DNA from: Acidobacteriota bacterium
GTDB lineage: Bacteria > Acidobacteriota > UBA4820 > DSQY01
Assembly: GCA_021787565.1 (NCBI GenBank)
Contig: JAJYLT010000001.1
Location: 99,298-163,297, forward strand
DNA: 64,000 nt
Reading direction: 5' to 3'
The notes beneath the pieces were generated by a model that saw only the letters and a list, made by a program, of their open reading frames with translations, did not search any database and was not told the DNA's origin. Positions 49,367-56,282 of this stretch are shown here, in pieces. The position numbers were made by a program, and so were the translations under genes. The stretch's first letter is position 1. Each line of letters opens with the position of its first letter.

Positions 49367-49443
49367 CGGGGCGTGGCGCAGCCTGGTAGCGCACCTGCTT
49401 TGGGAGCAGGGAGTCGGAGGTTCAAATCCTCTCGCCCCGACCA
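49367..49443 (+). tRNA. tRNA-Pro (anticodon UGG)
   Basis: CGGGGCG-T-G-GCGC-AGCCTGGTA-GCGC-A-CCTGC-TTTGGGA-GCAGG-GAGTC-GGAGG-TTCAAAT-CCTCT-CGCCCCG-A-CCA gives a cloverleaf with anticodon TGG. It is near-identical in its arms to E. coli tRNA-Pro. Confidence 0.85.
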
Positions 49444-49447
49444 GGTT

Positions 49448-50575
49448 TCAGCCGCCCTCAGAATTTCCGATGTTAGTTTTTTGTGAGTGCCGGACCGCGA
49501 GAACGGCCACGGCGTCCATGAGCATCTTTGGGGCGAGGTGGGCATAGCGGAGGGTCGTCTCGAAGTCCCTGTGCCCCAAAAGCTCCCGCACAACGGCAAG
49601 GTCCGCGCCGGCCATGATCGCCCGGCTTGCGAACGTATGCCGCAAGTCGTGAAACCGAAAGTCCTCGATCTTCGCGGCCGTGATCGCCGCTCGCCACTGC
49701 CGGGAAAGGTTGGCCTGTGTGCCCCCGTCCCCATTGGGGAAGACGAGGGCGCCCGTATTGATAGGCCGGGGTAGTTCATGCAGGACCGAAAGGGCCACCT
49801 CGTTCAAGAAAACGTGACGGTCCTTTTTCCCCTTGGCCCGCGTCGCCGGGATCGTCGCCACGGCGTTCGGTAGGTCAACGTCGCGCCAGGTAAGGCCGAG
49901 AATCTCGCCCCGCCTCGTACCCGTATGCAGAGCGAAAAGCACGATGCGCCGAAGGTAGGGCGAGCACTTCTTGAGTAGACGCTCCTCCTCATCGTCAGTG
50001 AGGAACCGAACGCGGCGGGGGTCTTCGCGGAAGAGTTTCACCTTTGCGGCGGGGTTGCCGTCCACGAGGCCCCACTGGCCGGCCAGGGTGAAGAGCCGCT
50101 TGAGCCGGGCAAGGGAAATATCCACGCAGCGCTTACCGACCAGCCGGGGCGCGGCGCCCTCTTTCTCTCCTGCCTTGCTCTTGGTGTCCCGAGCCGCCTC
50201 CTTCATGCGTTCGATCTTGTACCGTTCCACGTCGCCGCCCGTGATCTTGTCCAGGGTTCGTCCCTTGAAGCAGGGTGAGGCCTTCCACGAGTCGGCAACC
50301 CACCGGTCCATCTTGAACGTGGAGGCGCGGCAGTTGGCTTCCGACCACTCCAGGAAGCGCTTAACGGCTTGCTCGAAGGACGTATGCACTTCCTTGCGGC
50401 GGTCCCGGAAGTGATCGTCTATGATCTGCCCGCGAACGCTTTGGAGCAACGCGCGGGCCTCGGTGCGGTTGCGGCAAATTTTCCGAACCCATCGGCCCTC
50501 GTACATCCACGAGGCCCGGCACCGGCCGTCCGGTAAGACCAGAATGCCTTTTTCGCGCCTCTGTTGGGTTGCCAC
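49448..50575 (-). CDS. int: Tyrosine-type site-specific integrase (phage integrase family)
   Basis: C-terminal catalytic region ...HTGTRRGEILGLTWRDV...FHDLRHTFASRAIMAGADLAVVRELLGHRDFETTLRYAHL (R..H.R..H..Y) and an N-terminal SAM-like domain. Confidence 0.85.
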   Translation of the reverse strand: MATQQRREKGILVLPDGRCRASWMYEGRWVRKICRNRTEARALLQSVRGQIIDDHFRDRRKEVHTSFEQAVKRFLEWSEANCRASTFKMDRWVADSWKASPCFKGRTLDKITGGDVERYKIERMKEAARDTKSKAGEKEGAAPRLVGKRCVDISLARLKRLFTLAGQWGLVDGNPAAKVKLFREDPRRVRFLTDDEEERLLKKCSPYLRRIVLFALHTGTRRGEILGLTWRDVDLPNAVATIPATRAKGKKDRHVFLNEVALSVLHELPRPINTGALVFPNGDGGTQANLSRQWRAAITAAKIEDFRFHDLRHTFASRAIMAGADLAVVRELLGHRDFETTLRYAHLAPKMLMDAVAVLAVRHSQKTNIGNSEGG

Positions 50576-50587
50576 CGCTTCCCCCCT

Positions 50588-50878
50588 CTAGGCTTCGGTG
50601 ATCGTCCGCGGCTTCGCCTTGGCCAGCACCTTTCCCAGCCGCGCCTTTACCCGGTGGGCCTCAATGGCGGCCATGGTGGAAGTGCCCTTCCCGGCGGTGA
50701 GGTAGAGCACGAGGTCTTCCCCAAGAATGGTGTAGTTCCGCCGCGCCTCGGGTCGCACTGCCTTGAGGAGCTTGCGCCGGATGAGACGCCGAACGGCTTC
50801 GGCGCTGATACTCAGAATCCCGGCCGCCTCCTCCACGCTGTAGGCCTTCCCAAGAAGGCTGTCCAAGTCAACGGGCAT
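50588..50878 (-). CDS. Helix-turn-helix DNA-binding protein (excisionase-like)
   Basis: MPVDLDSLLGKAYSVEEAAGILSISAEAVRRLIRRKLLKAVRP is a MerR/excisionase-type HTH. Confidence 0.5.
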   Translation of the reverse strand: MPVDLDSLLGKAYSVEEAAGILSISAEAVRRLIRRKLLKAVRPEARRNYTILGEDLVLYLTAGKGTSTMAAIEAHRVKARLGKVLAKAKPRTITEA

Positions 50879-50929
50879 CCGGAGCCCTCCTTCCACTTGA
50901 GAATATAACGTTGCATAGGGTGCGCGTCA

Positions 50930-51060
50930 AGTGTCTTCGCGCGCGCGTAAGAGGCAAGAAAGCAGTGTCCGATAATAACTATTATGTTAAATCGTATCGA
51001 TATGCCAACTAAGACTCTCTTCACTTTTAGCTATCGTATATCCTATGCCCAGGGGGCCAA
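50930..51060. promoter_or_regulatory. AT-rich non-coding segment of the island with short direct repeats (TCGTAT-N-ATGCC x2); candidate promoter/operator or origin region
   Basis: ttaaatcgtatcgatatgccaactaag...tagctatcgtatatcctatgccc. GC is far below the window average. Confidence 0.3.
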
Positions 51061-54187: not shown

Positions 54188-54945
54188 GCAAGTCCCCCCT
54201 CACCACGAGGCGCCCGAAAGTAGATCAAAGGATCAATGGGAGCTGGCGCGGCGCCCAGTTCATCTTCCCAGCCTTTGGCATTGAGCCAGCTTGCGGGGTA
54301 AGGGATGAACGCCCCATCGTCTTTCTGCCAGTCCTTCGAGCGATTGGCCCGTTCGATGGCCGCAAGGATAGCCCGGAGCAGGTCTGCATCGGGGTGAAGC
54401 TTCTTCCAGGCCTTTTCCGCTTCACCCTTACTCCGCTTCCTCGGGTAGGCCTTCCAGAAGGTCTCAAATCCACTCGCGCGCACCGGGGGTGCGCAAGTCT
54501 TTTTTTCTGCTTCTGCTTCTGCTTGTTGTGATTTTGCGTGACGCGTCACGCTATCGTCACGCTCTGGCGTGACGCTCTGTGCGGAGGAGCGGCGCTCCCG
54601 ATAGCGCCGGGCGCGCTCCCGGTCCAGGGTGCGCCTCCGCTCCTCGTCCTGCATTTCTCGGTATTTGCGATAGTTTAGAACGAGATAGCCGCCGTCGGTT
54701 CTCTCGATCCGCCGGCCCTCGTTGTCCGGTGTGCGGCTATCGGGGTCGGGTGACTCGAAGAGGGCCAGCGCTCTGCGCGTCTTCCCCAAGGACACTCGCG
54801 CCTCATGGGCAATGCCCGGAGCGGTGGCCCGGACAAGGCCGTCGGGGTTGGCCAGAGCCAAAAGCGTGATCCAAACCTTGCACGTCTCGGCGTCCTCGGC
54901 CCATATGCTGCTTTGCAGGATGTCCGCGAAAAGCTTGGTGTACAC
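54184..54945 (-). CDS. Putative replication initiation/helicase-loading protein (hypothetical), translationally coupled to the helicase gene
   Basis: 253 aa with a basic Arg-rich central region (RRRTLDRERARRYRERR). Its stop overlaps the helicase start. Confidence 0.35.
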   Translation of the reverse strand: MYTKLFADILQSSIWAEDAETCKVWITLLALANPDGLVRATAPGIAHEARVSLGKTRRALALFESPDPDSRTPDNEGRRIERTDGGYLVLNYRKYREMQDEERRRTLDRERARRYRERRSSAQSVTPERDDSVTRHAKSQQAEAEAEKKTCAPPVRASGFETFWKAYPRKRSKGEAEKAWKKLHPDADLLRAILAAIERANRSKDWQKDDGAFIPYPASWLNAKGWEDELGAAPAPIDPLIYFRAPRGEGGLA

Positions 54946-54980
54946 GGCGCGCGCTCCTATTCAGGCCGCAAGCCGGCCGG

Positions 54981-55217
54981 TCACGACGGCCGCCGGCCGT
55001 CCGGGCGAAGGGTTTCGCGGGCCGCGATGGTGCTTGCATCGAAGATGGCGCGGATGTCGGCAAGCCGGTAATAGACGGCGTGCCCGATCTTCACGAAAGG
55101 AAGCTGGCGCTTCGAGGTCATTTGCCGGACAGTCCCAAGCGGGATGGAAAAGCGCCTGGCGAGTTCGGCCGCCCTCACGAATTCGGGGGAGCTGTCCAAC
55201 TTGGCTATCGGGTCCAT
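54981..55217 (-). CDS. AlpA/excisionase-like helix-turn-helix protein
   Basis: MDPIAKLDSSPEFVRAAELARRFSIPLGTVRQMTSKRQLPFVKIGHAVYYRLADIRAIF has an HTH_17-like fold. Confidence 0.5.
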   Translation of the reverse strand: MDPIAKLDSSPEFVRAAELARRFSIPLGTVRQMTSKRQLPFVKIGHAVYYRLADIRAIFDASTIAARETLRPDGRRPS

Positions 55218-55340
55218 GTCTACCTCCACCCTAATCATGGCGCGTGGTAGACACAACGCAAAGCCTGTCTATGTATGTGGAGATAAACGGGTTATCCGCC
55301 GTCTATGGTGGGTCAATGGGTGTCATGGGACAAATAGGCT

Positions 55341-55991
55341 CTATCTGTCCTGGCTGGGTGCCGCTCGCAATGTGTGAGCCCGATCAAGAGCCCTTTCGAT
55401 TGCCCGCCGGGTGCAGTCAACAGACGGGCTCCCCAAAAAAAGGAGCTGGATTCTCCCGGCTTCCTCTCGGTAATCAATGCAGTGAAGTCCTTCAAGCTTC
55501 CGCTCGCGAACGGCCTTTAGAAATGCGCCGGTTCGTTCCGTCTTGGTTTTCCAGCGGCCCCTTTGATTGGCCTCAAGAAACTTCTGCGCCAGCCGGGCGA
55601 GTGGACCGCGCTTGTCGCGCTTCGCCCGGCCGCCTGTCCTTCCGTATGTGGCCGACGTTTCCCGCGCCCGCTTCCGTTCATTGGCCGCAACGGTGCCGGC
55701 CAGCAGGGCGTCATCAAGGCTATTGATCGGCGCCCCCTCTACGGGGTCAAAGTCCCGGTCAATCATCTCCTGCCAGGCCTCGCCCGTGGGTGGGAATGCG
55801 GGAAAGGGCTCGTCCCAATTGGGGTTTTCAAAATCCTGGGGGAGCGGCTGCGGGGGCTGTGGCCGCGCTTTCTTCGACACGAGCACCCGGAAGCCGTCCT
55901 TGAGTGACAGGGTGCCGACAAAGTGGAATGATCGCTTTTCCTCGGGGGTAGCTTTCTTGCTCATTCCCGGCGCTCCTTCCGGGTGCTCCAA
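55341..55991 (-). CDS. Hypothetical protein (island cargo)
   Basis: 216-aa ORF with no recognisable motifs. Confidence 0.35.
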   Translation of the reverse strand: MEHPEGAPGMSKKATPEEKRSFHFVGTLSLKDGFRVLVSKKARPQPPQPLPQDFENPNWDEPFPAFPPTGEAWQEMIDRDFDPVEGAPINSLDDALLAGTVAANERKRARETSATYGRTGGRAKRDKRGPLARLAQKFLEANQRGRWKTKTERTGAFLKAVRERKLEGLHCIDYREEAGRIQLLFLGSPSVDCTRRAIERALDRAHTLRAAPSQDR

Positions 55992-56233
55992 AGAGGGTGA
56001 AGGGGCGGGCCGCTCGCTGGAGCTGCGAGCCCTGGCCGGTAGCTGGCCGGCCGGGTGCCCGCCCCTGATGGTTCGATCTTACCGCAGAGGGCGGCCGGGT
56101 GGTATGCCCTCCGGTGCCGATGTTAGTTTTATGTTAGTGCCGGGTCCAATTTCTCGCATTCCGTGTCAACTCGCCCTCTTCAAACGTCCTTAATATTCAA
56201 CACCTTTCAACTCTAGTCAAGTCGTCTGTCTAA

Positions 56234-56282
56234 GCTTTGGGAGCAGGGAGTCGGAGGTTCAAATCCTCTCGCCCCGACCAGG
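56234..56282 (+). repeat. attR: 49-bp duplicate of the tRNA-Pro 3' half
   Basis: Identical to 49397-49445. Confidence 0.8.

Follow-up and report, generated by a model that had tools for sequence, protein, structure and literature searches.

Small islands that carry an integrase and a replication module without virion genes are increasingly seen as abundant phage parasites that influence the dynamics between phage and host and bring along defence cargo, and the characterized satellite families come nearly all from Proteobacteria, Firmicutes and marine plankton. The minimal islands known as PICMIs, which lack packaging genes, are true satellites packaged as concatemers (PMC10803314), and VEIMEs, satellites without packaging or capsid genes, are packaged as concatemers as well (bioRxiv 10.1101/2022.07.26.501625). 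De Sousa et al. warned that three-component hits may be elements of other kinds and purposely left more than 6,000 three-component loci unclassified (PMC10085698). Here, we describe a small element inserted at a tRNA-Pro gene in a stretch of 64,000 nt from contig JAJYLT010000001.1 (assembly GCA_021787565.1, Acidobacteriota bacterium). We refer to the whole stretch as the window, and coordinates are window positions unless another locus is named. An earlier note on this DNA had read it as a small integrative element that carries a replication module but lacks structural genes, either satellite-like or akin to an integrative plasmid. The first part of this proposal was strongly borne out, while the either/or could be narrowed towards a phage origin. 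The element is very probably a functional or recently functional one that integrates and replicates by its own means. We regard it as an integrative replicon derived from a phage, most likely a helper-dependent minimal phage satellite of an undescribed family, although we give this last, tentative reading no more than about an even chance.

The perfect 49-bp duplication of the tRNA-Pro 3' half that the earlier note had reported, with its coordinates and its span of 6.8 kb, proved exact in a repeat search, ARAGORN and Rfam (Table 1). Both copies were 100% identical over 49 nt at a start-to-start spacing of 6837; they enclose 6,788 bp, which corresponds to a circle of 6,837 bp. At its left edge, tRNA position 31, the repeat still includes the final two bases of the 5' strand of the anticodon stem, and identity ended abruptly at both edges. 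Other repeat families in the 10-kb region did not exceed 27 nt and were imperfect. A search of the 64 kb for a third or degenerate core copy returned the two known ones only (28-mer with up to 3 mismatches, 2 hits versus 0 expected; nothing further by blastn-short), and the same searches revealed no older att remnants downstream that would be a sign of tandem islands. Since a perfect 49-mer pair is expected in 64 kb at roughly 1e-20 (own arithmetic, about 2e9 pairs x 4^-49), a chance origin of the repeat was excluded.

Alternatively, part of the tRNA might have been duplicated independently of the integrase, in which case ordinary chromosome would lie between the copies. The conservation of tRNA 3' ends makes this a bare possibility, and the earlier note had named a second full tRNA-Pro nearby as the finding that would speak for it. 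However, tRNA-Pro(TGG) was the sole tRNA gene in the window (ARAGORN, Rfam). The right-hand copy has no 5' half and was called as a tRNA by neither program, even at an Rfam E-value of up to 1, and is thus not a second tRNA gene. Moreover, the integrase gene abuts the core, arm-type dyads flank it, and the contig of an independent variant (L087, see below), which carries the same integrase, also stops at this core. In a metagenomic relative (L172), the same tRNA-Pro and upstream region are followed directly by host genes. The DNA between the copies is also compositionally foreign: its GC content was 63.2% compared to 68.6% in the left host flank, and host genes showed a GC content at third codon positions (GC3) of 0.86-0.94, above that of the element's genes (0.69-0.81). 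We therefore regard a mere tRNA duplication as effectively refuted.

The gene content listed in the earlier note reappeared in profile searches, beginning with a tyrosine integrase next to the tRNA and two helix-turn-helix (HTH) genes, both of which belong to HTH_17 (PF12728). The integrase gene reads towards the tRNA and stops 2 nt short of the att core, and all catalytic motifs (R, HxxR, H, Y) are present. Its closest homologs were metagenomic, one of them from Acidobacteriota, and homologs at 54-55% identity bear an Integrase_N_phage domain (PF26003). An excisionase-like HTH_17 gene is located 12 nt upstream of int and scored 27.1 bits against the 'excise' model TIGR01764, just below the cut-off of 28.8. 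A pattern search revealed a dyad of the form TGTTAGT-N4-TGTKAGT that occurs three times in the 64-kb window (0 expected). All six plus-strand occurrences of the heptamer TGT[TG]AGT in the 64 kb fall within these dyads. In the reconstructed attP, two of them flank the core, one on each side. Dyads on either side of the core are the classical arm-type site arrangement of a heterobivalent integrase, and the two core-flanking copies are probably integrase arm sites, judging from their sequence and placement. The third copy, in the middle of the element, may be bound by Int/Xis for regulation, or may mark a junction between modules. At the equivalent position, the variant L087 carries ACTAGCA-N4-ACTAACA (about 1992-2009 of that locus), behind its own unrelated dnaB.

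The replication module consists of an initiator gene and a gene for a DnaB-family helicase. The earlier note had taken the two as coupled, and the initiator stop indeed overlaps the GTG start of dnaB by 4 nt; the helicase comprises DnaB_C and DnaB_N domains. The initiator matched phrog_9474 and phrog_270 at 3e-23 and 1e-22, and replication-initiation or primosomal families at 1e-21 to 3e-23 in total. The helicase matched the NCBIfam model TIGR03600 (phage_DnaB) at 7.6e-62, below the family cut-off, and partially matched the primase/helicase family phrog_239 via its helicase domain; a primase domain was not present. More than 1,395 metagenome homologs of the initiator from many phyla were found, and the family has no Pfam entry. 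Its C-terminal domain (aa 152-236) occurred in 44 cultured phages, mostly temperate Pseudomonas phages, and in only three plasmid records; in the phage records it goes by the names replisome organizer, primosomal protein I or replication initiation protein. In IMG/VR, an alignment-based scan with the initiator yielded more than 566 loci, many of them full-length on viral contigs of 30-60 kb.

An AlphaFold (AF2) model of the initiator computed from a 33-sequence alignment reached a mean confidence (pLDDT) of 82.9. In it, a winged helix and a long helix form the N-terminal part, residues 130-152 a disordered linker, and a helical bundle the C-terminal part. Foldseek comparison with the Protein Data Bank (PDB) returned exclusively winged-helix DNA binders, at weak E-values, while BFVD gave 52 matches at E<=1e-3 that are annotated as replisome organizer, DUF1376, RepA-like or replication initiator of tailed phages. 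A PDB sequence search with the initiator profile gave no match. Invariant motifs of the family include SPD..SRTPDNEGRRI and F..FW..YPRK..K..A..AW. A family without a Pfam model or a solved structure detectable by sequence thus now has a confident two-domain model. The initiator-helicase layout is that of genes 18 and 12 of phage P22. Taken together, the module is an initiator-helicase pair of phage type and not of plasmid type, which speaks more for descent from a phage or a satellite than for an integrated plasmid.

Three iteron-like 12-mers are located in the linker-coding part of the initiator gene and mark a candidate origin. In a Syntrophales element (L048, see below), the initiator is of Phage_rep_O type and shares the C-terminal domain, and its gene has four clear 22-bp iterons at the corresponding position. 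Because of both observations, a lambda-like origin within the initiator gene is plausible by analogy.

A complete initiator-helicase module could also sustain an episome. The element might accordingly be a self-replicating, integrative plasmid-like or mobilizable element that needs no helper, persists or multiplies as an episome once excised, and moves by conjugative mobilization, vesicles or transformation. The pSAM2-type elements of actinomycetes likewise use a tRNA-Pro site. The lack of packaging and capsid genes would fit such an element, as would the finding that integrases 54% identical to ours occur beside a type IV secretion system (T4SS) coupling protein in an Acidobacteriota metagenome-assembled genome (MAG). 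Tycheposons and VEIMEs, too, occur in vesicle fractions (bioRxiv 10.1101/2020.12.28.424599; bioRxiv 10.1101/2022.07.26.501625). However, none of the nine proteins matched relaxase, T4SS, partition, FtsK-like (Tra) or oriT-associated families in Pfam, PHROGs or NCBIfam, and the initiator family is overwhelmingly phage-borne, as the phage, plasmid and IMG/VR counts given above indicate. We consider a helper-independent plasmid-like element unlikely, if not negligibly so.

Window positions 47615-64000 were 99.97% identical to contig DAHWTV010000026.1 of MAG GCA_027328665.1, and proteins of the element were found in several independent datasets (SRR13170411/12, SRR33270670, ERZ27233565). The most informative relative was L087, an 8.9-kb variant from an independent sample (SRR22746138), whose contig ends inside the same tRNA-Pro core. 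Its integrase is 90.7% identical at the amino acid level, with dS 0.45 and dN/dS 0.136, showing that the gene, by this sequence comparison, is under purifying selection. The xis gene is 93% identical and its promoter region about 86% at the DNA level; the C-terminal domain of the initiator is 78% identical and the arm dyad at the int end is the same. In contrast, the DnaB of L087 is an unrelated helicase (just 27% identical), and its cargo is unrelated as well, consisting of a large helical protein and several small open reading frames (ORFs), none with a family match. The large gene (2104-4551 of L087) encodes an alanine-rich, mostly helical protein of 815 aa without a match in Pfam, PHROG, NCBIfam or PADLOC, and occupies the place of the zinc-ribbon, 68-aa and 277-aa genes.

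This variant bears directly on the assumption that the locus is the remnant of a lambdoid or P22-like prophage that has lost its late genes and its mobility. The xis-int-attP end and the initiator-DnaB pair are exactly the lambdoid early modules, and proof of excision was not found. On the other hand, neither att core has a mismatch, each of the nine ORFs is intact in a compact arrangement, and pseudogenes or fragments of late genes are not present. The variant against which purifying selection on int was measured is independent, likewise small and without recognizable structural genes, and similar small tRNA-bounded elements recur in other phyla. That int, xis, att and arm dyad are shared while helicase and cargo have been exchanged argues for a living, recombining, modular family instead of a decaying remnant. 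Decay of a prophage is thus improbable, and we return to the reading as a helper-dependent satellite.

A number of observations weigh against this reading. Every contig long enough to contain a junction had the element integrated, including those retrieved by AbiEii and intron reverse transcriptase (RT) look-ups. A search of JGI metagenomes for the empty attB of the same species (exact 73-nt pattern of tRNA 5' part, core and right flank) gave 0 hits, and the attP junction was not found in the searched collections (JGI metagenomes, IMG/VR). Since neither an empty site nor an excised circle was found, helper dependence can only be inferred. In IMG/VR, core and arm dyad were absent and the integrase had no close relatives. 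The integrase clade gives no pointer to a phage, because the 54%-identity relatives mentioned above also serve an ICE-like element (ICE, integrative and conjugative element). The third dyad does not fit a simple arm-site model. Within the 64-kb window, which otherwise contains host genes, group II introns and a defence island, there was neither a helper phage nor any prophage. As the earlier note had claimed for capsid, tail and terminase genes, Pfam, PHROGs and NCBIfam revealed no capsid, portal, terminase, tail, lysis or repressor family among the nine proteins, and no recognizable packaging or hijacking gene. Four of the nine genes had no family, phage or structure match. With no such genes recognizable and four genes unmatched, it is the architecture that carries the satellite label; the unmatched genes may hide packaging or hijacking functions, an unrecognized counterpart of a capsid-morphogenesis gene, or a relaxase. 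Finally, the label 'PICI-like' used in the earlier note holds for the layout and fails for two of the defining genes: core components 4 and 5 of the PICI definition (PMC10085698), a capsid-morphogenesis gene and the small terminase, were not detected with Pfam, PHROGs or NCBIfam. The term can therefore stand for likeness of layout only.

The earlier note had also called for a comparison with genomes that lack the insert. No empty site of the same species emerged from this comparison, and what it did provide was a relative. The 41-nt core was present at at least 120 tRNA-Pro loci in metagenomes, and at these there was no related integrase above 46% identity and no other gene of the element. Locus L172 alone among them shares the upstream region (tRNA and 50 nt upstream at 94.7%). 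Directly downstream of its tRNA are a lipoprotein-like and a porphobilinogen-synthase-like ORF (identified by eye). As far as the alignment indicates, the tRNA-Pro site is unoccupied in this relative, although the flanks are not syntenic. In a further metagenomic contig (L126, Ga0209042_1001110), two copies of the same tRNA-Pro 3' segment (1064-1104 and 4271-4311) lie 3.2 kb apart and may bound another, still smaller insert.

We propose the following life cycle. The element's own heterobivalent integrase would recombine attP with the segment of tRNA-Pro(UGG) from anticodon loop to 3' end, using core sites within the tRNA sequence and the dyads 26 and 95 nt from the core as arm sites. The tRNA would stay intact because the element supplies a replacement 3' end. 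The promoter on the attR side would drive the genes for the ORFan, the AlpA-like regulator, initiator, DnaB, zinc-ribbon, 68-aa and 277-aa proteins up to the terminator. On induction, Xis and Int would excise the 6,837-bp circle. The winged-helix initiator would then bind the origin, for which the iteron-like repeats in the linker-encoding part of its own gene are the probable place, similar to lambda O, and its C-terminal domain would recruit the element's own DnaB, while host primase and polymerase would complete replication of the circle. Because no virion, lysis, relaxase or transfer genes are detectable, spread would need foreign machinery. The most plausible route would be the packaging of amplified concatemers into helper-phage capsids, as shown for PICMIs and VEIMEs.

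The nine closely packed genes all lie on the minus strand and are thus read from attR towards the tRNA. In each of the nine ORFs, GC3 was well above the GC content at second positions and was accompanied by a Shine-Dalgarno-like (SD-like) motif; intergenic gaps ranged from -4 to 142 nt, except for a control region of 450 nt. Plus-strand ORFs within the element were rejected as genes, since their codon-position GC lacks the gene signature. GC content had minima of 0.58 at 50.8-51.2 kb, in agreement with the low-GC control region of the earlier note, and of 0.56 at 55.2-55.6 kb. A consensus scan found five promoter-like sites in the element (1.0 expected), among them two upstream of xis at 51008-50981 and 50930-50902, and the control region is conserved with L087 up to 51078. 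The promoter-like and terminator-like matches suggest two transcription units, a long operon for regulation, replication and cargo, and a separately controlled xis-int cassette.

Table 1 Features of the element at tRNA-Pro, in the order of their window positions
Feature	Positions	Strand	Evidence
tRNA-Pro, anticodon TGG (UGG), intact gene at the left junction	49367-49443	+	ARAGORN; Rfam RF00005, 64.9 bits
attL core, 49 bp	49397-49445	+	100% direct repeat; spans anticodon stem to 2 nt beyond CCA
Tyrosine integrase, 375 aa, transcribed towards tRNA	49448-50575	-	PF00589 5.7e-31; phrog_1 7e-70
Predicted arm-type dyad TGTTAGT-N4-TGTGAGT, inside int 3' end, 26 nt from core (P' arm of attP)	49471-49488	+	pattern search
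HTH_17 excisionase-like gene, 96 aa (ATG); 102 aa from alternative GTG at 50896	50588-50878	-	PF12728 8e-9
AT-rich control region with two sigma-70-like promoters (TTGGCA-16-CATAAT; TTGACG-17-TATATT) upstream of xis-int	50902-51008	-	consensus scan
Intrinsic-terminator-like hairpin and T-run, end of long operon	51215-51248	-	consensus scan
277-aa helical/coiled-coil protein	51329-52162	-	coding-type GC3; SD-like motif
68-aa protein	52165-52371	-	GC3 0.80; SD-like motif
CxxC...CxxC zinc-ribbon protein, 127 aa	52375-52758	-	PF08273 Zn_Ribbon_Prim weak, E 0.008, below cut-off
Third dyad TGTTAGT-N4-TGTTAGT, 12-29 nt downstream of dnaB stop	52872-52889	+	pattern search
DnaB-family replicative helicase, 428 aa, GTG start, Walker A GARPSVGKT	52901-54187	-	PF03796 1.3e-40; PF00772 2.6e-17; phrog_19 3e-64
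Replication initiator / replisome organizer, 253 aa	54184-54945	-	phrog_9474, 270, 9327
Three iteron-like 12-mers (CGTCACGCTNTG) in linker-coding part of initiator gene; candidate origin	54544-54579	.	iteron-like repeats
AlpA-like HTH_17 regulator, 78 aa (ATG); 91 aa from alternative TTG at 55256	54981-55217	-	PF12728 1.3e-6; phrog_66; SD-like motif
First operon gene, 207 aa; 216 aa from alternative TTG at 55991	55341-55964	-	GC3 coding-type; SD-like motif
Predicted arm-type dyad TGTTAGT-N4-TGTTAGT, 95 nt from core (P arm of attP)	56121-56138	+	pattern search
Sigma-70-like promoter TTGACT-17-AATATT, just within attR, reading into long operon	56192-56220	-	consensus scan
attR core, displaced tRNA-Pro 3' part without 5' half	56234-56282	+	100% direct repeat

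The remaining genes provided few leads. The product of the first operon gene is a strict ORFan, with a self-hit alone among 5.8 billion clusters and 1.84 billion representatives; of the four unmatched genes, this was the one for which large protein collections were searched. Its single-sequence AF2 model was unusable (pLDDT 48.6). Both HTH_17 proteins also gave weak MerR matches in Pfam. The zinc-finger and coiled-coil proteins of the earlier note correspond to the CxxC...CxxC protein with its weak Zn_Ribbon_Prim match and to the 277-aa protein, which yielded weak SMC/LmuB coiled-coil-type matches at most and no Pfam or PHROG family. Neither of the two had a match in cultured phages or the PDB, and the 68-aa protein had none in Pfam, PHROGs, PADLOC or NCBIfam. 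As for defence genes, PADLOC gave HTH and coiled-coil matches at noise level only. In an Rfam search at E<=1, no known non-coding RNA besides the tRNA was found in the element, apart from a type II Hammerhead match inside the 277-aa gene (51946-52013, minus strand) that was rejected as most likely due to chance (22.5 bits versus a cut-off of 37 bits, E 0.49).

The first 46 kb of the window comprise host genes (PAS/GAF kinases, MurJ, SelB, RNase G and a sigma-54 activator). Two group II introns follow in direct tandem (46759-49262), about 105 bp upstream of tRNA-Pro. The first, at 46759-47397 (639 bp), lacks an ORF and matches the 5' 530 nt of its neighbour at 91.7% and the 3' 85 nt at 95.3% identity; the second, at 47398-49262 (1,865 bp), is full-length with an RT/maturase ORF at 47797-49170. 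Left of 47615, inside the repeated intron, DAHWTV010000026.1 diverges from the window and carries DUF4372 transposase fragments, an 848-aa ORF, KilA-N and N6_Mtase, while the left part of the window lies on another contig of the same MAG. A faulty join at the intron repeat in one of the two assemblies may be the reason, or a difference between the strains.

Immediately right of attR, a defence island (56283-64000) encodes AbiEii/AbiEi, a RhuM-family protein (59011-59721) and a protein of 1,113 aa with HEPN_Swt1 and DUF499 (59924-63265); the MAG contig continues with DUF4325 and DUF1156 genes. The tRNA-Pro gene may be a hotspot that seeds islands, with which the defence island would be in agreement. 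The AbiEi/AbiEii pair (57141-58782) is bracketed by a direct repeat of 144-148 bp (84% identical; 56996-57143 and 58864-59010), from which two small ORFs on the minus strand take their N-terminus (MPGVRKLRS..NLWEVL..DTFPIHTALWLFKNA). By its sequence, the AbiE cassette looks as if it had been inserted into, or duplicated with, a small gene.

Small elements with related parts were also found in other hosts. Solimonas terrae KIS83-12 provides an analogue from a cultured host, a 9.5-kb island (L006, 5132-14669) bounded by a 25-nt repeat (88% identical) of a tRNA-Glu 3' end. Structural genes are lacking; besides its integrase, the island codes for a HigB toxin, an initiator from the same family, a DnaB of 349 aa that looks truncated, and a DUF4224 protein. 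In the Syntrophales MAG contig DAOSIS010000019.1, an element of about 9.2 kb (9.16; L048, 7501-16696) lies between two copies of a perfect 39-nt repeat of the 5' half of a tRNA-Arg. Its genes encode an Arm-DNA-bind integrase, the Phage_rep_O-type initiator, a DUF6475 protein and an HK97-fold capsid protein (PF05065, Phage_capsid). Owing to the capsid gene, this element of deltaproteobacterial lineage resembles a capsid-forming PICI. Its integrase is 31% identical to ours, and the attP geometry is alike, with one repeat inside the 3' end of int and another in the opposite arm.

What the locus represents can be stated at several levels. It is an ordinary object for a tRNA hotspot, in a variant outside the current satellite families and with unmatched cargo; as it stands, we have a well-annotated but unsurprising mobile element. 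It is also a clean and fully delimited example from an uncultured lineage, with a replisome organizer and its own DnaB as the replication solution. Satellite status, if true, would extend the known satellite architectures and supply new candidate hijacking genes. One could go further and assume that the element and L087 are the first members of a so far undescribed family of minimalist phage satellites whose hosts are uncultured bacteria of high GC content. Such a family would have a backbone of xis-int, AlpA-like regulator and P22-type initiator-DnaB pair, swappable cargo for novel helper-hijacking or anti-phage functions (here the 277-aa, 68-aa and zinc-ribbon proteins, in L087 the 815-aa protein and small ORFs), and a third dyad at the backbone/cargo junction that couples Int/Xis binding to cargo expression or module exchange. 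We consider this extended scenario rather doubtful.

By the published definitions, the element would belong to no described satellite family. Two of the five PICI core components (PMC10085698) are present, the integrase and, judged from Pfam, an AlpA/MerR-type regulator; a third is present by analogy only, since PICIs replicate with a primase-replicase, whereas the element combines a winged-HTH initiator with a DnaB that has no primase domain. Its likeness to the PICI 'Type C' sets of SatelliteFinder lies in integrase, AlpA/MerR-type regulator, replication module, compactness and conserved order. With P4-like satellites, the element shares int and an AlpA-like gene only, as Psu, Delta, Sid, Ash/epsilon and the alpha primase-helicase were not found with PHROGs or Pfam. 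The cfPICIs carry their own capsid, portal, head-maturation and terminase genes, whereas no such families were detected in the element (Pfam, PHROGs). Mobility by conjugation would set integrative and mobilizable elements (IMEs) and ICEs apart, as neither a relaxase nor a T4SS family was found among the nine proteins (Pfam, NCBIfam). Small int-xis-rep elements of pSAM2 type, the actinomycete ICEs (AICEs), occupy the 3' segment of tRNA-Pro and can exist as a replicating circle; they carry a RepSA-type replication gene and an FtsK-like Tra translocase. In our element, Pfam and NCBIfam revealed neither an FtsK/SpoIIIE nor a Rep family. The early regions of lambdoid and P22-type phages resemble it in the transcription of xis-int towards attP, in the two-domain initiator coupled to a DnaB-type helicase, in the candidate origin inside the initiator gene and in a C-terminal domain common to temperate Pseudomonas phages. 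The corresponding prophages differ by their repressor/Cro, lysis, head, tail and terminase genes, which the element with its nine genes on 6.8 kb does not have.

The closest parallels were found among the minimal satellites. PICMIs (PMC10803314) are likewise about 6 kb in size, bounded by direct repeats, and composed of a tyrosine integrase, an AlpA/HTH_17 gene, a replication gene and a few genes of unknown function, without capsid-remodelling or terS-like genes. Of the PICMI model, the integrase (PF00589) and AlpA (PF05930 or PF12728) are both present in the element, while the PICMI primase, DUF3987 (PF13148) or DUF5906 (PF19263), had no Pfam match in the nine proteins. PICMIs integrate downstream of fis in Vibrionaceae, in contrast to the tRNA-Pro used here, and no sequence relationship between the two was found. 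VEIMEs (bioRxiv 10.1101/2022.07.26.501625) are also small and integrase-bearing, with AlpA, excisionase and helicase genes and in their vast majority without capsid genes; they are defined by concatemers found inside virions, and the element was absent from IMG/VR. Tycheposons (bioRxiv 10.1101/2020.12.28.424599), which include a PICI-like subclass, resemble it in their tRNA-targeting tyrosine recombinase, with tRNA-Pro(TGG) among the sites, in a small replication module with DnaB-type helicases, which in the element (initiator-dnaB) lies in the attR-proximal half, and in the position at the tRNA-proximal end of a genomic island, here a defence island. They differ in the orientation of the integrase, which points inward in tycheposons and outward, towards the tRNA, in the element, and in their streamlined marine hosts compared to a high-GC uncultured bacterium. 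Tycheposon integrases form a tyrosine-recombinase lineage of their own; the closest homologs of our integrase came from metagenomes, including one from Acidobacteriota. Tycheposons also carry cargo for adaptation or phage interference, with which four unmatched genes and noise-level PADLOC matches can be compared in the element. The features of a generic tRNA-integrating element with a tyrosine integrase are all present, with a tRNA 3' repeat bracketing the island and int adjoining the intact tRNA. By analogy with these systems, the element would work like a minimal satellite or a tycheposon-type element.

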